From: an uncultured Gemmatimonadales bacterium
GTDB taxonomy: Bacteria > Gemmatimonadota > Gemmatimonadetes > Longimicrobiales > Gaopeijiaceae
Direction of reading: 5' to 3'
DNA length: 64,000 nucleotides
Assembly (NCBI GenBank): GCA_963809895.1
Contig: CAWELD010000003.1
Location: 3,200,001-3,264,000, forward strand
The position numbers and the translations under genes are program-made. Below are positions 11,291 to 42,550 of the stretch, piece after piece. Under the pieces are notes generated by a model. It saw nothing but the letters and a program-made list of their open reading frames with translations, searched no databases and was not told where the DNA came from. The first letter of the stretch is position 1. Each line of letters opens with the position of its first letter.

Positions 11291-12394
11291 ATGGACACCT
11301 CACAGAAGCGCGCCCCGCCCCGTCGTCCATGCCTGGTCCGCGTGGCCGACCGCGGCGACGTGCTGGAGATCGCGTTCGGCCGGGGATTCACCGAGTCCGA
11401 TGTCGCCACCGTGAAGGCGCTCCCCCAGCGCCGCTGGGACGCCGAGCGGAGCGTCTGGATCGTGCCCAAGGCCGAGGGCGTCGACGAGGCGCTCGAGCGA
11501 AGCTTCGGCGCCCGCATCCGACGCACCCGGGCCGAGCCGCCCGCGAACCCCGAGGGTCCCGAGACCCTCCTGGACCGCACCCGCACCGAGCTCGTCATCC
11601 GGGGCTACGCGAGGCGCACACAGAAGATCTACCTCGGCCACCTGCGCCGCTTCCTGGAGTGGTGCGACCACGACCTCGGCTCCGATCCTCCTCGCCGCAT
11701 GCGTGCCTACCTGCTCCACCTGGTGGAGGACCGGGGCGCCTCGCGGAGCTATCACAACCAGGCCGTCAGCGCCCTGAAGCTCCTGTGCGAAGCGGTGCTC
11801 GGCGAGCCCCGCCTGGCCGAGCGGGTCCCCCGCCCCAAGCCCGAGAAGCGCCTGCCACAGGTCTTGAGCCGCGCCCAGGTGCGTCGCCTCGTGAACCAGA
11901 TCCGCCATCCCAAGCACCGCGCCATCGTTCTCCTGCTCTATTCCGCGGGACTCCGGGTCGGCGAGGTCGTCCGGCTCAAGAAGGAGGACCTGGACACCGA
12001 CCGCGGCCTCCTGCGCGTGCGCCAGGGCAAGGGCAGCAAGGACCGCTACACCCTGCTCTCCACCCGTGCCCTCGAAGCCGTCCGCATCTATCAAGCCGCG
12101 TATCCTTCAGAGGAGCGCTGGCTCTTTCCCGGCGAGCGCAGGGGGCGCCACTACGGCAGCCGCTCCGTGCAGAGGATCGTCCGCGAGGCCGCCCGCAAAG
12201 CCGGCCTCGGCGAGCACGTCACGCCCCACGTGCTCCGTCACTCCTTCGCCACCCACCTACTCGAGGCCGGCACCGACCTCCGCTACATCCAGGAGCTCCT
12301 CGGCCACAAGAGCAGCCGCACCACCGAGATCTACACCCACGTCAGCTCCACCCGCCTGGCGGCCATCCGGAGTCCGCTGGACGAGGAGGGGTGA
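11291..12394 (+). CDS. tyrosine recombinase (integron-integrase-like, lacking the IntI insertion) with an extra N-terminal HARP/DUF5710-like domain
   Basis: SAM-like RGYARRTQKIYLGHLRRF; catalytic YSAGLRVGE, GKGSKDR, HVLRHSFATH, LLGH and TTEIYTH; N-terminal VKALPQRRWDAERSVWIVP. Confidence 0.9.
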   Translation: MDTSQKRAPPRRPCLVRVADRGDVLEIAFGRGFTESDVATVKALPQRRWDAERSVWIVPKAEGVDEALERSFGARIRRTRAEPPANPEGPETLLDRTRTELVIRGYARRTQKIYLGHLRRFLEWCDHDLGSDPPRRMRAYLLHLVEDRGASRSYHNQAVSALKLLCEAVLGEPRLAERVPRPKPEKRLPQVLSRAQVRRLVNQIRHPKHRAIVLLLYSAGLRVGEVVRLKKEDLDTDRGLLRVRQGKGSKDRYTLLSTRALEAVRIYQAAYPSEERWLFPGERRGRHYGSRSVQRIVREAARKAGLGEHVTPHVLRHSFATHLLEAGTDLRYIQELLGHKSSRTTEIYTHVSSTRLAAIRSPLDEEG

Positions 12395-12959: not shown

Positions 12960-13143
12960 GGGCCGATCCTCGCCGCCCAACCCACCGAGGCCCAAGCATT
13001 GCGGCTAGGGTGTGCCCGGTGCAATATGAAGTCGGGGGATTCACGAGGCGCAGAGGCCAGGGCCCGAAGAGGACCTAAGGCCCGACCACACCTTCGGAAA
13101 TCTCCGGGCGATGGGCGAACTCGTGCCAGACACACCCAACGCC

Positions 13144-13158
13144 CATAAGGAGTTATGC
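13144..13158 (+). other. candidate primary (attI-like) recombination site
   Basis: CATAAGGAGTTATGC; GTTATGC starts the first cassette; shares AAGGAG(T/C)TA with the sites at 23825 and 27253. Confidence 0.5.
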
Positions 13159-13472
13159 AAAATGCGGTGGTGCGGCCTGGGTCGCTGGCGCCGGACGAAG
13201 CCTTCGGAAAAGGGCGAGCGATCGGGTCGAGTGACCGCCTCCCCAGCCCCTCTTCATGGGTTGGCACCCTTCCCTTTCCCGACCCATTCTAAGCCGGCCA
13301 TGGCTTCGATCCCCGAGCTCCGGCAGGGGCTGGGTTCGGCTACCATCGTCGCCCCGGGGTCCAACTCAGCCTTCGAGAGGCAACGGCTTCCTCCGGCCTA
13401 CGGCTCCTCGCCGGGCTGCGGTACGTGGGCCATCGGTGATCACTCCGCAGCACCTCACGCACTCTGCATAAC
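13152..13472 (+). ncRNA. ORF-less structured cassette, copy 1 (putative ncRNA or ssDNA element)
   Basis: Bounded by GTTATGC/GCATAAC; nested stems CCCAGCCCCT/AGGGGCTGGG, ATGGGTTGG/CCGACCCAT and GCTGCGG/CCGCAGC. Confidence 0.55.
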
Positions 13473-13632
13473 AACAAGGCTTCCGGCTCCGCGCCCGCCG
13501 TGCACGGCGCGGCCTCCGCGCAACCGGCCCACGACCAAGTGGAAGACCCTGGCGAAGCCGGCAGCAACTCAGCGTAACCTGCGAGTCGAACGATTGGACG
13601 GGGGCCGGTTCGGAAGCCCCGTCACGTTATGC
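13466..13632 (+). repeat. attC-like site, family A (167 bp)
   Basis: GCATAAC-aacaa-GGCTTCCG...CGGAAGCC-ccgtcac-GTTATGC. Confidence 0.85.
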
Positions 13633-13941
13633 AAAATGCGTGGTGCGGCCTGGGTCGCTGGCGCCGGACGAAGCCTTCGGAAAAGGGCGAGCAATCGGGT
13701 CAGATGACCGCCTCCCCAGCCCCTCTTCATGGGTGGATGCCCTTCCCTTTCCCGGCCCATTCTAAGCCGGCCATGGCTTCGATTCCCGAGCTCCGGCAAG
13801 GGGCTGAGATCGGCTACCGTCGTCGCCCTGGGGTCCAACTCAGCCCTCGGCGGCCCGGCTTCCTCCGGCCTACACTCCTCGCCAGGCTGCGGTACATGGG
13901 CCATCGATGTCACTCCGCAGCACCCACGCACTCTGCATAAC
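13626..13941 (+). ncRNA. ORF-less structured cassette, copy 2
   Basis: Tandem diverged copy of 13152-13472 with indels that break any shared reading frame. Confidence 0.55.
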
Positions 13942-14513: not shown

Positions 14514-16018
14514 GATATGGAAGGGCCTGTCAAGGTATGTAGCGCGAAGTGTGGGGAGCCCGGGGCGGCTTCGACGATGAATCCTGCTGATATTCGATGG
14601 TTGAGCCCGTCAGGGCCCAGAGCATCAGGAGACGGATTCGTCGGGAGCTGGCTGGAGTCTATTCGCGGGGATTGGGCGCTGGGCCGTACCCCGTAACGTT
14701 TTCGGGCGTTCTCCTATCGTGCCCCGAGACTCCCCAATGTTCGCTCGCTGGTTGAATCAGGCGGCGCGGCTCACCTCCTGAAGCTGAGAGACATCCACGT
14801 CGCGGAGGACGGCCCAGAGGAAGCCGACCATCTCGCGGGCGACGGCCGTGGCGGCCACCGGCCTGGGCTTCTTGGCGGCGAGTCGATGGAAGAGAGTGTA
14901 GAGGCGATGCTGACACTTCCAGGCGTGCTGAATGACGGCGGGATCCTGGCCGCGTTGACGGCGGCGGAGGGACGCGCCGACGGCCGGGCGCTTCCGATAG
15001 TGCCATGCAGCCTGGATCAGGATATGGCGGCACACGTGTGTTGCCGGCCTTGGTGATGGCGCCCAGGCGTCGCCGCTCTCCCGAGGAGTGCTCGCTGGGG
15101 ATGAGGCCGACGTAGGCCATGAGCTGGCGCGGACTCTCGAAGCGGCGAACGTCGCCGAGCTCGGTAGCGAGGACCATGGCGGCCTGGGTCTTGAAGCCGC
15201 GGAAGCAGCGGAGGCGGTCGACCAGGGGCTTGTAGCGCGGCGTGAGGGCGAGGTCCTCGATGCGACGGTCCAGCTCGTCGCGTCGCTGGAGCTTGTACTC
15301 GAGCAGCGCGAGGTACTCCGAGAGCACGATCTGGTCTTCGTCGGCGAAGGTGCCGGGGTCGAGCATGTGGCGGATCCAGTCGAGGTGGCGCACGGTCCAG
15401 TGGGTGCCCTCGCGATAGATGAAGCCTCGGCGGCGCATGAACTTGAGGATATAGTGGCGCGATTTGACGATCTCGCGCTGGAAGGTCTCGCGGCAGCGGA
15501 CCAAGTCGCGCACCCGCTCGTCGGCCTCGGTGGGCACGTGAATGAGGACGAGGCGGTCGTCACGGAAGTCACGAGCGATCTTGATGGCGTCGCGGCGGTC
15601 GGACTTGCGGTGCTCGCCCGGCCGCGCGCGGGATCAGCGAGGGCGCGGCCAGATCGCAGGGCGACGCCCCAGTCGACGAGGGAGCGCTGGAGCACGTAAC
15701 CCGCACCCGAGGCCTCGTAGCAGGCGCGCACGGACGCCCTCGGCTTGGAGCCGCTGGAAGTAGCGGCGGACTTTGCGGAGATCGTAGGGGAGGCGGTCGA
15801 CGCGCATGGGCTCCGGATCACGGTCCCGGAACACGGCCGCAGTGACGGAATCCTTGTGGACGTCGAGGCCGACCCAGAAGATTGGGGCACGATGGGATGA
15901 TGACATGGGGCTGGTCTCCTGTCGGTTGCGGCTCGACCGCCGCATGTGGCGCTGGCGTTGCCTCTCACGCGACGCTAATCCACGACATCCGCGGGAGGCC
16001 AGCCCTTCCATCGTGTCT
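14514..16018 (-). mobile_element. IS110-family, IS1111-type element
   Basis: Sub-terminal IRs ATGGAAGGGC (14517-14526) / GCCCTTCCAT (16002-16011), 3 and 7 nt from the ends; no target duplication; ~240-bp non-coding region downstream of the transposase. Confidence 0.85.
14757..15906 (-). pseudogene. IS110 transposase, frameshifted
   Basis: VGLDVHKDS, CYEASG, DRRDA and GLIPSEHSSG...GAITKAGN motifs spread over three frames. Confidence 0.85.
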
Positions 16019-18094: not shown

Positions 18095-18258
18095 GCTTAA
18101 CTGCGGGCTTCCGGCTCCGCGCCGCTGAACGCGGCGCTCCGTCCCAACTGGCCGCGGCCGTCAGCGGAAGGGTCTGGCGGTCAGGCTGCGGGCGAACGTA
18201 CTCTGGCCACCTGAAGCACTGCTGACGGGGCCAGTTCGGAAGCCCTGACACGTTATGC
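18095..18258 (+). repeat. attC-like site, family A variant
   Basis: GCTTAAC-tgc-GGGCTTCCG...CGGAAGCCC-tgacac-GTTATGC. Confidence 0.85.
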
Positions 18259-18566
18259 CCAATGTGGAGGCGCGTCGTGATCGCGGGCACCGGAGGAAGC
18301 CTTCGATAGGTCGCGAGCGAGAAGGTCAGTTGACCGCCTCCCCAGCCCCTCTTCAGGGGTTGGCACCCTTCCCTTTCCCGACCCCTTGAGCCAGCCATGG
18401 CTTCGATCCTCGAGCTCCGGCTTGGGGCTGGGTTCGGCTACCATCGTCGCCCCGGCGCGCAACCCAGCCTTCGAGAAGCAAGGGCTTCCTCCGGTTTCGG
18501 CTCGTCGCCGGGCTGCGGTACGCGGGCGATCCCGACCACTTCCCAGCGCCTCCCCACAGGCATAAC
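18252..18566 (+). ncRNA. ORF-less structured cassette, copy 3 (more diverged)
   Basis: Same core as 13152-13472 with compensatory stem changes. Confidence 0.55.
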
Positions 18567-23910: not shown

Positions 23911-25653
23911 ATGCGAATCGAGAGCGTTGAGATCGAGGGATTTAGGTCGTTCGGGCTCGACCCTGTCTTGATCCGCTTCCCGGAGATTGACGTGCCGATA
24001 TCAGTCATCGGGCACAACAACTCGGGGAAGAGCAACTTCCTCGCCGCGCTGCTGCACGGCACCGCCACGCGGCCGTCCTACCCGAACAACTTCAGTCTGG
24101 ATGACCTTTTTGGACGGGATGAAGGGACGATCTGCAACATCGACGTGCGGATCTCGCCACCCCTACTGAGTGCGAATGCCTTCAACAACGTGACCGAGAT
24201 GCCTTCGCTTCGGCTTCGGATACAATGCGAGGCGGGCGTGATCGAAACGTCCCATTACTGCTTCGATCCTGACGGGAAGCAGGTCTACAACGTTCGGTCG
24301 GTCAAGCGAAGTAAGAGCAAGGTCTATTCGGAGGACGAAAAGGAGACGCTGACGACGTACGCGCGCACCGGCGCGGAGCAGGTGCACAAATGGCGCTCCA
24401 AGATCCCCATCTACTACATCGGTCCGGAGACGCTGTATAAGGAGCTGACTCCGTCCCGGTTCAGTCTGCTGGGGAAGGTGATCGACTCGTTCCGGGCCGA
24501 GTTTGAGGACCCGGAGAGCACGATGGAGGCGGCGGACGGCGTGGTGGACTCCCACATCGGGCGACCGCGTGCCGAGATCTACGAACAGGCGATGCGATAC
24601 ATCGAGGAGCACGTTCTCCCGGCATCTGGCTTTCGGGCTTTCGTAGATGAAGTTGAGGCGATCGTCCGGGAGCAACTCGCCGTAGACGAGGAGTCGTTCG
24701 GGGTTCGATTCAGACCACCAGTTGCGGACGCGTTCTTCAAGAACCTTCGGTTTCACATCAGGGAGAATGAGCATCGACCGTTGCTCCCGATCGACCGGAT
24801 GGGGTCCGGCTTCGTCTCTCTGTTTGTGGTGGCCCTACTGCGAGCCCTCGTCGACACCGACGAGGGTGGAAAGATCTTCTTGCTCGAAGAGCCCGAGACC
24901 TATCTCCACGAGCACTACCAGGACTACTTCTACGAAGTGCTGTGCGAGCTCGCTGAGTCAAACCAGGTGGTCTACACGACTCACTCGAAGAAATTCGTGA
25001 ACGTCTTCCGGCCGGAGTCCATCATTCGACTTAGCGCGACTCCCGACGGGACTGTCCCCGTGACGGCGGGGGGCGGGGCCGTAGACTTCCCGGACGGCGT
25101 TGACGGCTACGAGCTGAAGAGCCCCGAGGACTTCCCGAAGTTTCTTTGTACCCTGGAGCCGAATCTCGGGAACACAGTGTTCGCTTCACGCGTCGTTGTG
25201 GTAGAGGGCCCGCACGACCTCTTGGCCTACCGAACCGCCCTCGACGGATCCGTCGAATGGGGACTTCGGAACACCGCGGTGGTCAGTGCGTGGGGTAAGG
25301 ACACCGTCGCGGCGCTAGTTGAACTCTGCCACGCCTTCGAAGTACCTGTCTTCGCGATCCACGACCGAGATCTTCCGCAAGAGATCAGTGACGACGATCC
25401 GGTTGATTCCCTGACTCCCGGTCAGAAAGCCCAGCGGACCAAGAATGCACGGATCGCGGGCTTGTCGGGACCCAATCACGTCCACCAGAATCGACCGAAT
25501 CTCGAGGGCGTCCTGGGGATCCCACCGGAGGAGAAGTCCGCCGAAGCCGTCTTCGGCGCGTTAGCTGGGAAGGATCTCCACGAGGTTCGGACCGAGTTCC
25601 CTGGGCTGATTCCCGACGCTCTCCTCGAGTTTCTTCAAGTACCGACCGATTAG
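23911..25653 (+). CDS. OLD-family ATP-dependent endonuclease (AAA plus TOPRIM)
   Basis: IEGFRSF, GHNNSGKSN, MGSG, LLEEPETYLH, TTHS, VVVEGPHD and IHDRD. Confidence 0.9.
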   Translation: MRIESVEIEGFRSFGLDPVLIRFPEIDVPISVIGHNNSGKSNFLAALLHGTATRPSYPNNFSLDDLFGRDEGTICNIDVRISPPLLSANAFNNVTEMPSLRLRIQCEAGVIETSHYCFDPDGKQVYNVRSVKRSKSKVYSEDEKETLTTYARTGAEQVHKWRSKIPIYYIGPETLYKELTPSRFSLLGKVIDSFRAEFEDPESTMEAADGVVDSHIGRPRAEIYEQAMRYIEEHVLPASGFRAFVDEVEAIVREQLAVDEESFGVRFRPPVADAFFKNLRFHIRENEHRPLLPIDRMGSGFVSLFVVALLRALVDTDEGGKIFLLEEPETYLHEHYQDYFYEVLCELAESNQVVYTTHSKKFVNVFRPESIIRLSATPDGTVPVTAGGGAVDFPDGVDGYELKSPEDFPKFLCTLEPNLGNTVFASRVVVVEGPHDLLAYRTALDGSVEWGLRNTAVVSAWGKDTVAALVELCHAFEVPVFAIHDRDLPQEISDDDPVDSLTPGQKAQRTKNARIAGLSGPNHVHQNRPNLEGVLGIPPEEKSAEAVFGALAGKDLHEVRTEFPGLIPDALLEFLQVPTD

Positions 25654-27252: not shown

Positions 27253-27272
27253 CAGATAAAAGGAGCTATCTG
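27253..27272 (+). repeat. minimal cassette boundary site (GTT mutated to GCT)
   Basis: CAGATAAA-AGGA-GCTATCTG; the duplicate cassette at 33727 begins GTTATCTG. Confidence 0.7.
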
Positions 27273-27334
27273 AAGCTGGCTTCGCAACCCGCACTCACGC
27301 GTCGCGACGGGAACTGACTGGGAGAGTCTGGCGT

Positions 27335-27358
27335 GAGTATACTAGTATCGGTATACTC
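27335..27358. promoter_or_regulatory. palindromic operator/promoter of the RelE-HTH TA cassette
   Basis: GAGTATAC-N8-GTATACTC containing TATACT, immediately upstream of the toxin; nearly conserved in the second copy. Confidence 0.5.
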
Positions 27359-27387
27359 GTTCATGAGCAGACGCGACGCCCAAGCCG

Positions 27388-27732
27388 GTGGTCTGGCTCG
27401 GATCGGCCCGATCGGACCTACGCTCGTTCCCGGAGGAGGTCCGTACAGACGTGGGCTTCGCCCTCTGGGTGGCACAACGGGGTGGACGGCCCGCCCAGGC
27501 GAAGACGCTCAAGGGAATCGTCTCCGGTGCGGGCGTGCTCGAGCTGGTCGAGCGCCGCGACGGGGACACCTATCGAGTGGTGTACACAGTACGGTTCGCG
27601 GATGCGGTGTACGTACTCCACGCATTCCAGAAGAAGTCGAAGCGCGGAATCAAGACGCCGAAGCATGAGATCGACCTGATTCGGTCGCGGCTCAAGGCCG
27701 CGGAAGAGCACTACGGTGGGAGCGGACGATGA
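27388..27732 (+). CDS. RelE/HigB (Gp49-like) toxin, copy 1 (5' +1 indel relative to copy 2)
   Basis: WLGSARSDLRSFP...YRVVY...YVLHAFQKKS. Confidence 0.8.
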   Translation: MVWLGSARSDLRSFPEEVRTDVGFALWVAQRGGRPAQAKTLKGIVSGAGVLELVERRDGDTYRVVYTVRFADAVYVLHAFQKKSKRGIKTPKHEIDLIRSRLKAAEEHYGGSGR

Positions 27733-28058
27733 CCAAGGACCAGATTGAGGAGAGTTCGGGGAACGTATTCGCGGACCTAGGTCTCGCCGAGGCGGAAGAA
27801 CTCCATACAAAGGCTCAGCTTGCGCATCGGATCGGCGAGATCGTTCGCGGTCGCCACCTCACGCAGGCCGAGGCTGCGGACGTGCTTGGTGCGACGCAGC
27901 CGATCGTCTCGAGGCTGATGCGTGGCCAGCTGCACGGATTCTCGCTAGAGCGTCTCATGCGGTTCCTCAACGCTCTGGACCGCGACGTTGAGATCGTGGT
28001 CCGGCGCCGGCCACGGAGTCGAGATCACGGCGAGACACGGGTGAAGGTCACCGGCTGA
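27729..28058 (+). CDS. XRE/HigA-type HTH antitoxin, copy 1
   Basis: SSGNVFADLG, LTQAEAA and FSLERL. Confidence 0.85.
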   Translation: MTKDQIEESSGNVFADLGLAEAEELHTKAQLAHRIGEIVRGRHLTQAEAADVLGATQPIVSRLMRGQLHGFSLERLMRFLNALDRDVEIVVRRRPRSRDHGETRVKVTG

Positions 28059-28150
28059 CCCGCCGGGTAACGACAGTCACCCGCTTGGAGAGACGCCCGA
28101 GTTGGGTTCGTTTAAGCCGCTCTGGTTCTCCGACCAACGAAGCCATCAAC

Positions 28151-28314
28151 AGATAACTCCAGGCTCCCGGCTCCGCACCGCTGAACGCGGCGCTCCGTCC
28201 CAACTGGCCTCGGCCGTCTCGGAAGGGGGTTTCGCATCGGCTGCGAAGGGACGTATGCTGGCCGCATGAAGCCGTGCTAACGGGGGCCAGTTCGGAAGCC
28301 CCTTCACGTTAGAC
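28151..28314 (+). repeat. attC-like site, family A variant
   Basis: AGATAAC...GGCTCCCG...CGGAAGCC-ccttcac-GTTAGAC; similar to the site at 18095. Confidence 0.85.
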
Positions 28315-30589: not shown

Positions 30590-30684
30590 AGCGAACTGAA
30601 AAGTTGCCGCCGCCGTTCGCTCACGCTCACTTCGGTGAAGCACGGCCCTGTTCGGGCCGCGCCGGCAACTCCGACACGTTAGAA
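30590..30684 (+). repeat. attC-like site, family C
   Basis: AGTTGCCG...CGGCAACT-ccgacac-GTTAGAA; core similar to the site at 22587. Confidence 0.8.
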
Positions 30685-31173: not shown

Positions 31174-31317
31174 CGGTCAACGCCCGGCGGTCGAGGGAGA
31201 CCTGACTACCCAAGTTGAGGAGAGTCAGCGGTCAGCTTCGTCCGACCGCGGCCCACTCCTTCTAACAGGAAGGCTTCCGGCTCCGCGCCGCTGGCGCGGC
31301 CTCCGTCCCAACCGGCC

Positions 31318-32781
31318 TCCATGAGAAGGCCCGCCGTGTCAAGCTCGGTCGCATCATAGTTCGAGTCGTGCCCTCGCCGTGCCTCCATTCGCAGTCCTGG
31401 TCGGCCGCTCGGGCCTGCTGCATGCTGGTGTCCGTCCCTGCCGGGCGCTGCAATCCCTTTGACGGTCTTGAGAGACCTGGGCCGGTAGCGCAGTCACCCG
31501 GACAGGGCGTCGAGCGCGTCTCGTGTCGTGAAGCGACCTCGTGGTCGTCGGAACCTCCGAGTGTGATCGGTGCGATTCGTGTCGGTTCAGGGGATCAGGC
31601 GGCGACCTCCGCGCCGGCCTCCGGGACCTCCGTGTCGGCGTTGTGCAGCGGCTCGTAGACCTCACCCGTGACCCAGAGTCGGTGAAGGAGCACGGCCAGT
31701 TTGCGGGCAACCGCGATGATGGCCCTCCTCTTGGCCGCCGGCCCGCCTCGTTCCGCGAGCCGGAGTCCCCAGCGTCTCAGATCGGTGTCCGGTCCGAAGG
31801 GTCCGAGGACGTAGTGGGCCGACTGCACGAGGAGGGTGCGGAGCATCCGGTCGCCGGCCTTCGTGGTCGAGAGCTCCGGACTCGACTCGCCTGACTGGTG
31901 CCGTCGAGGCACAAGCCCCAGGTAGGGGCCCACAGCCCGGCTCGTGGAGAACCGATCCGGGCTCTCGAGCGTCAGCAGGTAGGTGAGCGCCGTGAGCGTT
32001 CCCACGCCTTGCACCTGCGTGAGCACCCTCGTCTCCGGATAGTTCGTGCGCGCCAGCTCCTCGATCCAGCGATCCATCTCTCTGATCTGCGACGTGAGCT
32101 CGGCGATCGTGTCGAGGACCGGGAGCAACGCCGCGTACAGCGGTTCGGGGATATCCTCCTCGACCTTCCAGTGGAAGCTCTCCGTCGAGCAGGGCGGCAA
32201 CCGACCACCCATCGCCTTGACGGTCGAGCGCATGTGATTGACCAGCGCCGTCCGGGCCTCGACCAGGGCGCTCCGGGACCGGATCACCGCCAGGTCCGCC
32301 TGCGCGTCCTCGCTCCGGTGGATGACCGGTGCCAGTAGCTTCGGATCGAGCCGTCCGACCCGAGCCAGGTACTCGGCATCGGCGCGGTCGCTCTTCTGAT
32401 CGTTCTCGTAGATGAACCGGAGCTTGCGAGGATTGGCGACGATCACCTCGTGGCCCAGGCCGTGGAGCAGCCGACTGATCCACGGCGAGTGGGGCCCCAC
32501 CTCGAGAACCACCCGCGTCGGCTCCTCGCGCTCGAACCGACGGGTCAGCGCCGGCGCCGAGGTCGAGAGCCGCGATTCCTCGACCACCTCGCCCGACGCG
32601 TCCACCACGCACAGGTGACTCACTCGGTCGCTCACGTCCAATCCGATTGTCCGCTCCGGTGCCTTCGCCGTATCTTGCATTCGGCCAACCTCCGTGCCTT
32701 GGGCTTCGAGCCCGCTTCTAGTTTGGGGCGCCCGAAAGGGTAACCCCGACTCCGCCGGGGGTTGGCCTTCTCATTTCATCC
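31318..32781 (-). mobile_element. IS110-family, IS1111-type element
   Basis: IRs ATGAGAAGGCC (31321-31331) / GGCCTTCTCAT (32764-32774), 3 and 7 nt from the ends; no target duplication. Confidence 0.88.
31595..32680 (-). CDS. IS110 transposase, intact
   Basis: IGLDVSD, VLEVG, KSDRADA, GLVPRRHQSG and AVARKLA. Confidence 0.92.
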   Translation of the reverse strand: MQDTAKAPERTIGLDVSDRVSHLCVVDASGEVVEESRLSTSAPALTRRFEREEPTRVVLEVGPHSPWISRLLHGLGHEVIVANPRKLRFIYENDQKSDRADAEYLARVGRLDPKLLAPVIHRSEDAQADLAVIRSRSALVEARTALVNHMRSTVKAMGGRLPPCSTESFHWKVEEDIPEPLYAALLPVLDTIAELTSQIREMDRWIEELARTNYPETRVLTQVQGVGTLTALTYLLTLESPDRFSTSRAVGPYLGLVPRRHQSGESSPELSTTKAGDRMLRTLLVQSAHYVLGPFGPDTDLRRWGLRLAERGGPAAKRRAIIAVARKLAVLLHRLWVTGEVYEPLHNADTEVPEAGAEVAA

Positions 32782-33052
32782 CACGAGCAGCTGGAAGACC
32801 CTGGCGGAGCGGGCGGCACTCAGCGTCACCTGCGAGTGAGCGGTTGGGACGGGGGCCGGTTCGGAGGCCCTAGAACGTTATCAGCCATTGCCCGGACGAG
32901 AGGATCGCGGGAGCGTGAGTGAGGCATGCTGCGCGCCGCGCGCCTCTGGCCGGGTGCGGCCCGGAGGTCGAGGATCTTGCGAGCATGAGTGCCCGGAGCA
33001 AGTGTTGGCGAACGAGGAGGGCCCTCCCGAGCGAGTGAGGGGTAATCAAAGC

Positions 33053-33631: not shown

Positions 33632-33733
33632 TGATAACAGGCTGGGTTGCCACTCGCGTCGGCCTGCGGCCGGTGCGGCCCTTCGGGACACCCGCCCCGC
33701 GGGCGGGCGTCGGGAACCGCCGGAACGTTATCT
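33632..33733 (+). repeat. attC-like site, distinct family (102 bp)
   Basis: TGATAAC...GGTT...AACC-gccggaac-GTTATCT. Confidence 0.75.
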
Positions 33734-33824
33734 GAAGCTGGCTTCGCAACCCCCACTCACGCGTCGCGACGGGAACTGACTCGGAGGCTCTGGCGTAAGT
33801 ATACCAGTATCGGTATACTCGTTC

Positions 33825-34193
33825 ATGAGTGACGCGACGCCCAAGCCGGTGTTCTGGCTCGGATCGGCCCGATCGGACCTACGCTCGTTCCCGGAGGAGG
33901 TCCGCACGGACGTGGGCTTCGCCCTCTGGGTGGCACAACGGGGTGGACGGCCCGCCCAAGCGAAGACGCTCAAGGGAATCGTCTCCGGTGCGGGCGTGCT
34001 CGAGCTGGTCGAGCGCCACGACGGGGACACCTATCGGGTGGTGTACACAGTACGGTTCGCGGATGCCGTGTACGTACTCCACGCATTCCAGAAGAAGTCG
34101 AAGCGCGGAATCAAGACGCCGAAGCATGAGATCGACCTGATTCGGTCGCGGCTCAAGGCCGCGGAAGAGCACTACGGTGGGAGCGGACGATGA
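33825..34193 (+). CDS. RelE/HigB (Gp49-like) toxin, copy 2
   Basis: Near-identical to the copy at 27388, with an intact start. Confidence 0.85.
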   Translation: MSDATPKPVFWLGSARSDLRSFPEEVRTDVGFALWVAQRGGRPAQAKTLKGIVSGAGVLELVERHDGDTYRVVYTVRFADAVYVLHAFQKKSKRGIKTPKHEIDLIRSRLKAAEEHYGGSGR

Positions 34194-34519
34194 CCAAGGA
34201 CCAGATCGAGGAGAGTTCGGGGAACGTATTCGCGGACCTAGGTCTCGCCGAGGCGGAAGAACTCCATACAAAGGCTCAGCTTGCGCATCGGATCGGCGAG
34301 ATCGTTCGCGGTCGCCACCTCACGCAGGCCGAGGCTGCGGACGTGCTTGGTGCGACGCAGCCGATCGTCTCGAGGCTGATGCGTGGCCAGCTGCACGGAT
34401 TCTCGCTAGAGCGTCTCATGCGGTTCCTCAACGCTCTGGACCGCGACGTTGAGATCGTGGTCCGGCGCCGGCCACGGAGTCGAGATCACGGCGAGACACG
34501 GGTGAAGGTCACCGGCTGA
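34190..34519 (+). CDS. XRE/HigA-type antitoxin, copy 2
   Basis: Protein identical to 27729-28058. Confidence 0.85.
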   Translation: MTKDQIEESSGNVFADLGLAEAEELHTKAQLAHRIGEIVRGRHLTQAEAADVLGATQPIVSRLMRGQLHGFSLERLMRFLNALDRDVEIVVRRRPRSRDHGETRVKVTG

Positions 34520-34611
34520 CCCGTCGAGTAACGACAGTCACCCGCTTGGAGAGACGCCCGAGTTGGGTTCGTTTCAGCCGCTCTGGTTCTCCGACCAGCG
34601 AAGCCATCAAC

Positions 34612-34680
34612 AGATAACTCCAGGCTCCCGGCTCCGCACCGCTGAACGCGGCGCTCCGTCCCAACTGGCCTCGGCCGTCT
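34612..34680 (+). repeat. truncated attC-like site (left half only)
   Basis: Matches the 28151 site up to CGGCCGTCT, then joins the VapBC cassette leader. Confidence 0.8.
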
Positions 34681-42508: not shown

Positions 42509-42550
42509 GGCTTCCGGCTCCGCGCCGCTGAACGCGCGCTCTGTCCCAAT
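42509..42550 (+). repeat. remnant of a family A site (left arm)
   Basis: GGCTTCCGGCTCCGCGCCGCTGAACGCG...TCCCAA. Confidence 0.75.

Follow-up and report, generated by a model that had tools for sequence, protein, structure and literature searches.

An IS1111-family element inside an attC-type cassette site, with predicted guides that fit mainly one half of the target

The DNA analysed here (the window; 64,000 nt, G000:C3:3200001-3264000) carries an element of the IS1111 family on the minus strand at 31318-32781, inserted in a palindromic attC-type site of a cassette array. The best explanation, to which as a whole we give a probability of about 0.6, is that the element is intact and recently mobile, and that it homes on the conserved arm of this site family under the dominance of the right-target guide of an RNA predicted in its non-coding end. 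That the element is an RNA-guided member of IS1111 is nearly certain, and is common to this reading and to three of the alternatives weighed below (an unseen other target, a folded single-stranded target and a decayed guide). The sequence-only reading had announced a bridge-RNA system. An IS1111-type seek/bridge RNA is indeed a supported prediction for the non-coding end, but the element belongs to a kind of system known since 2024 (PMC11187229, PMC11208160). The one feature of this element that stands out is the mismatch of its left-target guide.

At the left junction ACCGGCC runs into TCCATG, and at the right one TCATCC runs into CACGA. In the empty sites of this family at 13523, 13992 and 16653, which read ACCGGCCCA, ACCGGCC is followed directly by CACGA. 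By comparison with these, an insert of 1464 bp splits ACCGGCC from CACGA at 31317/32782, and the coordinates and insertion point (ACCGGCC|CACGA) given earlier are all correct. On the minus strand the insert is composed of GG, 5 nt, an 11-bp repeat, a 361-aa frame, 263 non-coding nucleotides downstream of the transposase gene (from stop codon to right repeat), the inverse repeat and 3 nt. The subterminal repeats match at 11 of 11 positions. The terminal extensions are 7 nt (left) and 3 nt (right), and target duplication is absent when the junctions are set against the empty sites. The element is a member of the IS1111 family, and has every feature of that family that is testable here. A blastn search finds one full-length copy in the genome. 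A 27-nt match to the left end also occurs at C5:35486-35512 and C6:7126-7152 of the same genome, in a stretch present on two contigs; it has the repeat with one change plus TTCAT, lacks the CC core (E 3e-4), and is either a relic or chance.

Table 1. Features of the element, its target site and related genes, in window coordinates
Feature	Coordinates	Strand	Basis
Tyrosine recombinase, points towards the array	11291..12394	+	PF00589, PF13495
First IS, another IS1111-type element, at GTT|A of a site outside the family	14514..16018	-	
Left part of attC-type site, R'' TTCTAAC to core; carries the right-target half	31260..31317	+	
Right subterminal inverted repeat, 11 bp, 3 nt from right end	31321..31331	-	sequence; homologues
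TTGACA, likely -35 box of a promoter formed at the circle junction	31337..31342	-	TTGAC conserved in relatives
Predicted seek/bridge RNA, target-binding loop then donor-binding loop; ends unmapped	31376..31509	-	anchors; stem covariation
Left-donor guide, last 5 nt of right end plus core, 7/7 (CCTCCAT)	31382..31388	-	
Right-donor guide slot, weak, 2/5 fit to left end	31425..31429	-	loosely matched across the family too
Left-target guide slot, TCAAAG plus core GG	31455..31462	-	covaries with left flank in homologues
Two letters after the core, completing the 9-mer of the sequence-only reading; probably no guide	31478..31479	-	
Right-target guide, 7 nt (6/7 fit right flank) plus two core-pairing C	31480..31488	-	
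DEDD transposase/recombinase, 361 aa, single open frame	31595..32680	-	PF01548, PF02371, NF033542
Left subterminal inverted repeat, 11 bp	32764..32774	-	sequence; same layout in homologues
Left-end spacing, 7 nt outside left repeat, including GG core at 32780-32781		-	
Right part of attC-type site, to R' GTTATCA; starts with the left-target half	32782..32883	+	

The transposase had been called intact, and this holds. The gene forms a single open frame, encodes both Pfam IS110 domains (the DEDD RuvC-like domain and the C-terminal domain with its SG motif) and scores 220.7 bits against the NCBIfam model NF033542 (cut-off 140). All five catalytic residues are present (D15, E60, D98, D101 and S263) and are conserved as D in 78/78, E in 80/81, D in 81/81, D in 81/81 and S in 81/81 sequences, counts that include the protein itself. 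It is only distantly like IS621 (E 2.5e-7) and ISCro4 (E 2e-6), and its best plasmid matches reach 33–40%. The C-terminal motifs GPFGPDTDLRR and AVARKLAVLLH are, by eye, common to this protein and those of ISAcp5 and ISCARN52 (ISfinder names; proteins taken from supplement file 6 of PMC11187229), which look like the nearest named kin in a motif look-up read by eye. A literature search on these two led only to the seekRNA paper and found no guide or target work on them. In a quick tree of 78 rows, midpoint-rooted for drawing only, the element is paired at 99% support with a sister element, L192 (74% identity). The genome has one more IS110-family transposase gene, the third (C10:605682-606692), which is 31% identical and contains one stop codon.

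On this sequence alone, the matches between the non-coding end and the junctions exceed chance only moderately. Of 2000 dinucleotide shuffles of that region, 3.6% give a target match of at least 9 across the core, 15% a donor match of at least 7, and 0.5% both. The single-sequence fold of the predicted RNA is slightly better than that of shuffles (z -1.5), and a search of Rfam gave no match to it.

Comparison of homologous sequences, on the other hand, proves RNA guidance in this family by covariation. A total of 219 loci were examined (80 from genome contigs, 80 from metagenomes and more from related genomes), and 162 of them have three fixed anchors downstream of the transposase. Both ends and flanks are available for 123 of these, yielding 111 distinct homologue sites and 78 distinct right guides. 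Left out were 57 loci without RNA anchors, 39 without both ends or flanks, the element itself, two with unequal cores, and repeats of one site; L092 is among the examined loci in which the RNA was not found. Across the 78 relatives, the right-target slot, which follows the first anchor, fits the reverse complement of the right flank at 334/390 positions, compared with a mean of 174 and a maximum of 196 for shuffled pairings; its register (7, 8 or 9) is that of best fit, chosen alike in real and shuffled pairs. The left-target slot before the second anchor fits the left flank at 327/390 positions (105 on average and 138 at most for shuffled pairings). In 77 of 78 relatives, the left-donor guide (the 7-mer behind the third anchor) is identical to the element's final 5 nt with the core attached, and it tracks the element-end variants ATAGA (13) and ATGGG (3). 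Since the relatives are not independent by kinship, these counts are not probabilities, although they lie far from the shuffled values.

Core and guides also change together. The left-target and the left-donor guide both end in AG in 153 of the 162 predicted RNAs, in GG in three (this element, L192 and L121) and in TG in two (L175 and L209); the remaining four have other guide ends and look mis-registered. In all five GG or TG RNAs, the junction core is the same dinucleotide. The predicted structure likewise covaries: an alignment of 25 RNAs has 17 consensus pairs, of which 8 change on both sides, a level reached by 0 of 500 shuffles and approached by no slid structure.

Both matches singled out by the sequence-only reading fall in these slots. 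CCTCCAT, read there as the match to the circle junction, is the left-donor guide, and the adjoining TCG belongs to the scaffold, within the third anchor. The 9-mer TGGGCCGGT (31478-31486), taken as the target guide, does sit in the right-target slot, but the guide itself consists of 7 nt plus the core. Of the 9-mer, the first seven letters (five for the right flank, two for the core) are guide, and the slot runs two letters further out, one of which fits. The five letters nearest the core thus fit the right flank at 5/5, as does the core, and there is a misfit at +6. For the last two letters of the 9-mer, a fit to the left flank is seen in 1/60 relatives (0/6 among those sharing the register) and a fit to the donor in 0/60; here they probably fit by luck. 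A handshake role for these letters (the term is that of PMC13626964, in the part of its text available) was tried and rejected on the counts of 1/60 for target and 0/60 for donor, and a handshake-like role may be entertained at most. Mutating the 9-mer as a unit, the experiment suggested earlier, would alter seven letters of the guide together with two that probably do not belong to it. The earlier description was also incomplete in that the left-target slot had been missed. Here TCAAAG faces the flank CTCGTG and fits only at position -1 (1/5), plus the core.

Such a poor left fit is exceptional. Among the 111 relatives' sites, 46 fit at 5/5, 38 at 4, 19 at 3, 7 at 2 and 1 at 1; the sole 1/5 case is mis-registered, as are the slots behind the low left scores of L007, L202 and L205. 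Position -1 is matched in 96% of relatives. In multi-copy relatives the right flanks are steadier than the left flanks.

The target lies in an array that extends over ~13.1–35.4 kb of the window and consists of single genes or toxin-antitoxin pairs between imperfect palindromes of 85–165 nt, which start with TAAC and end with GTTA. A mark of integron cassettes is that R'' is complementary to the 7-mer at the start of its cassette. In the 13 cassettes compared, all four variable letters are complementary in 10, three in 2 and two in 1. The recombinase gene at one side of the array scores above the cut-off of NF040815, and below that of TIGR02249 (210.6 vs 265) with its match split in two stretches; it is the probable integrase of the array. 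The sites are called attC-type here because this recombinase passes the former model but not the latter. R'' of the occupied site (TTCTAAC) is complementary to GTTAGAA at 30678, with which the upstream cassette starts. The element has entered this 154-nt site 53 nt from TAAC. The transposase gene is on the minus strand and the cassettes are on the plus strand, placing the element antisense to the array, and in its orientation the top strand of the element is the attC bottom strand. A hairpin z-score computed on 40-nt flanks is uninformative here, as the partner arm of the site is further off.

The repeat family of the occupied site, which we take to be family A of the sequence-only reading, is represented in the genome by eight left arms, all of which lie in this array. 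Sites of the family were also compared from seven related genomes: there the right-target half, or the arm as far as the core, is constant and the sequence after the core varies, although the constancy comes partly from selection, the query and pattern having contained that half. Outside the array, at window positions 42509, 50771, 51876 and 62686, there are partial copies of these sites that lack TAAC/GTTA cores, and a lone decayed site of the family lies far from the array at C3:1892660-1892900 (minus strand). The array includes many toxin-antitoxin cassettes, duplicated cassettes (27267-28250 and 33729-34680), an OLD-family ATPase/TOPRIM gene (23911-25653) and a DUF5131 pair. Three of its short cassettes (13111-13470, 13630-13940 and 18250-18565) are related to one another (~310–340 nt, 62–93% alike), have no Pfam match and are possibly non-coding.

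Parts of the window occur in 17 public runs, and contigs of four of these (X1, X2, X5 and X11) were compared with it. A 231-nt contig of X11 covers 32711-32870. In it, the element's left end is joined to a different family site, with the junction at the same base as here. The contig differs from the window at 12 letters, of which the 10 listed all fall from 32787 on, and by 2 gaps; the listed substitutions and the gaps lie in the site part, and the cassette start behind the site is not that of the window. This flank is identical to none of the five window sites compared (76–81 of 89 positions). A second site of the family has therefore received the same left end, at an identical position; the contig is short, and the guide region is outside its cover. 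The cassette start behind the lone decayed site resembles the one behind this junction. In X2, the guide region is letter-identical (31350-32326), and a left-end contig departs from the window one base past the core, with 7 unlike letters. The flank in X2 is unlike the occupied site, and the element therefore also uses another flank. The contig of X1 stops at the base where X2 departs. In the RNA run, the contigs do not reach the guides. All four junctions agree at position -1.

How well the sequences fit is by itself not enough to account for two hits in this family. The genome contains 619 copies of G-GG-CCGGT, four of them in the left arm of family sites, making a second family hit unlikely from this 8-nt address alone; in addition, 665 sites fit the right guide as well as the occupied site does, and the left guide better. 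The fully matched predicted target has 0 matches in the genome. Among 314 genomes of the host family it has 36 matches in 30, fewer than a reversed-pattern control, and none of the 30 loci read is an attC or a shared repeat. In 401 genomes of the class, the same right guide occurs at the level of the reversed control, with no exact match outside the present genome. The same right junction gave two matches in the 314 family genomes, both in unrelated coding DNA. Viral contigs yielded 21 matches to the left-donor motif, none with RNA anchors, and 66 matches to the site arm, none of them a family site with both arms.

In the homing reading, the element would form a circle whose junction makes a promoter, and the non-coding end would yield a two-loop seek/bridge RNA bound by the transposase, both steps being modelled on the family as presented in the available text of PMC11187229. 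In 72 of 79 elements TTGAC stands 24–26 nt ahead of the core, where a junction promoter would have it, and the predicted junction of this element supplies a -10 box with a 3/6 fit to consensus. A sigma-70 scan of the linear element found no promoter, and the joint of a circle was not seen among the contigs of X1, X2, X5 and X11, of which the uncovered parts prove nothing. The left-donor guide would read the circle junction and the right-target guide GG plus CCGGT, with strand exchange at the GG core in one orientation and without target duplication. Target choice would be lopsided, in that the right guide, the core and left position -1 fit and the rest of the left guide does not. The half-address read in this manner would be the conserved arm of the attC family of this host group, the other half varying between sites. 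The element would then home repeatedly on one mid-stem position, antisense to the cassettes, and the palindromic fold of the site would probably add the missing specificity.

The anatomy, which matches that of IS1111 as defined in the portion of PMC11187229 consulted, favours this reading, as do the covariation of guides and stems, the X11 junction and the steadier right flanks of multi-copy relatives, and ISPpu10 (below) sets a precedent. Against it, only two insertions in family sites have been seen, one of them from a short contig, and a 1/5 left match is far outside the family norm (103/111 relatives fit at 3 or more positions). IS621 tolerates mismatches poorly, according to the available part of PMC11208160, and the sister L192 has a 4/5 left match at a flank without the look of an attC. 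It is rather improbable that the recombinase has outright given up most left-target pairing and finds the attC family by half address plus site fold, possibly through attack on the extruded bottom strand with exchange of one strand. If this were true, four mismatches would go beyond what any tested member tolerates. A different view is that the guides are programmed for another, unseen target (TCAAAG, core GG, CCGGTAG) and that the attC insertions are tolerated secondary sites, the array being favoured as non-essential DNA rich in the right half-site. We regard this as possible but doubtful. Both guides deviate from the attC family (the left at 4/5, the right at +6) while those of relatives mostly fit their targets; the X2 contig combines identical guides with a different left flank, and the X1 contig stops at the same base. 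Half-matched insertions are also known among relatives, such as L053-L055 (left 2/5) and L004 and L017 (poor on the right). However, no repeat with the predicted target was found, either in the genome or above control in the 314 family genomes, and in two family sites the junction is at one and the same base.

The left guide might alternatively pair with the opposite hairpin arm of a folded, single-stranded attC. The 9-nt left guide plus core fits GTCGAACGG at 7/9 positions in two window sites (16605 and 18563) as well as in the flank from X11, the element's strand orientation relative to attC agrees with such an attack, and top-strand-only insertion is reported for another IS110 element in the accessible text of 10.1101/2025.10.25.684509. 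The match was found post hoc, however: shuffled guides reach 7/9 in a 25-nt arm in 7.7% of trials, and the guides of 4 of 78 relatives do so as well, which is chance level. The motif is moreover absent from the occupied site (best 6/9, elsewhere), and the match stands 3 nt away from the core, with a misfit at -1, where nearly all relatives match. This makes pairing with the opposite arm very unlikely. Still less probable is a left guide that fitted at insertion and has since decayed, or a flank that was replaced, leaving the copy stranded. The single copy in the genome agrees with that, as does the need of seek-RNA elements for target-derived flanks in order to excise (PMC11187229, in the text available). 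Yet stems, anchors and transposase are all intact, which is hardly expected beside four changes in five guide letters; X2 has the guide region letter for letter, and the flank continues as a normal family site. Finally, the matches could be chance in GC-rich DNA with targeting by the protein alone, for which the values on sequence alone (P ~0.036 for the target, 0.15 for the donor) leave some room. For the family this is refuted by the covariation of slots in 78 relatives, the co-changes of the core and the covariation of stems, and for this element it is barely credible.

Another IS1111-type element, the first IS of the window, provides a comparison within the same array. The two elements had been described as using different positions of the family A site, and as two distinct recombinases that converged on the sites of this array. 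The former does not hold, as the first IS is inserted at GTT|A of a site of another family; the latter holds to the extent that two distant transposases (~29% identity) have entered cassette sites of the array, but not sites of one family. Removing the first IS restores GTTATGT, the complement of the next R''. Its transposase is frameshifted and spread over three frames. The shared geometry noted earlier is confirmed: the donor match is 2+5 nt followed by TCG in both (CCTCCAT at 31382; CTGATAT at 14587 in the first IS), the donor matches lie 64 and 73 nt and the target matches 160 and 181 nt from the ends, and the guide order is the same. The target match of the first IS is AACGTT at 14695. 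After its insertion the left junction has AG and the right AA; the donor and target cores therefore differ. By eye, its transposase resembles ISCARN28/ISSfr2.

The closest described systems are the IS1111 seekRNA elements ISEc11, ISPa11, ISKpn4 and ISPst6 (Siddiquee et al. 2024, PMC11187229). As far as the accessible text of that paper goes, the present element resembles them in its subterminal repeats (11–13 bp in those elements), extensions of 7 and 3 nt and non-coding region that lies downstream of the gene for the transposase, in a top-strand match located 5' of the bottom-strand slot, and in its one orientation in a folded target. In those elements both strand matches fit, whereas the bottom-strand slot here fits at 1/5; their RNAs were purified and shown to be essential, whereas the RNA of this element is a prediction from sequence. 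The IS621 bridge RNA and predicted bridge RNAs of the IS1111 group are described by Durrant et al. 2024 (PMC11208160), whose loop names are used here. In the available part of that work, as in the present prediction, two loops hold left and right guides for target and donor, each with the core, and the IS1111-group RNA is in the right end. Unlike those RNAs, the one predicted here has a GG core (AG in most relatives), a right guide that precedes the left, and a weak right-donor guide.

Insertion in attC, antisense to cassettes, is shared with the IS1111-attC group (ISPa21, ISPst6, ISKpn4) of Tetu and Holmes 2008 and Post and Hall 2009, known through the consulted parts of PMC3001079 and PMC11187229. 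As presented there, members of that group form one clade and insert near one end of attC, whereas the present element is mid-stem; it also probably belongs to another lineage. The position of the first IS, at GTT|A, fits that group better. ISPpu10, in the available text of 10.64898/2026.03.19.712850, is strict in its right guide, tolerates mismatches in its left guide at positions away from the core, and requires a target stem-loop to be efficient; the stem-loop could not replace lost pairing, and single mismatches were tested. The palindromic repeat target is similar here, and in the homing reading so are the strict right guide and a left guide strict only next to the core. However, ISPpu10 is of the IS110 group with an upstream RNA, and the four left mismatches of this element go beyond what is described for it. 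A literature search, with most subscription papers outside its reach, found no study of the guides of the present lineage.

For the kind of system described in 2024, the element adds one more readable IS1111 guide RNA. Its poor left match, together with the hit in a sister site, bears on how much pairing is needed and on whether target structure compensates, and this pairing requirement sets the off-target behaviour of IS1111/IS110 recombinases as editing tools. The lineage as a whole constitutes a natural reprogramming set, with 78 distinct guide sets and their targets and with cores AG, GG and TG in step with the guides. The sister L192 has the same GG core as the present element and other guides, and the pair is a case of natural retargeting. 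Members of the lineage mostly use targets other than attC. Nevertheless, attC is reached in at least three ways: mid-stem here, internally in L194 and on the R'' side in L124, L125, L151 and L177. The last four, a separate clade in the quick tree, are inserted in attC-like sites right after YAAC-A on the top strand, and L194 lies 31 nt inside an attC-like site on the bottom strand; the left guides of all five fit normally. In three further loci, L036, L117 and L119, the left flank reads TTTTTCAAC, which resembles the end of another insertion sequence.
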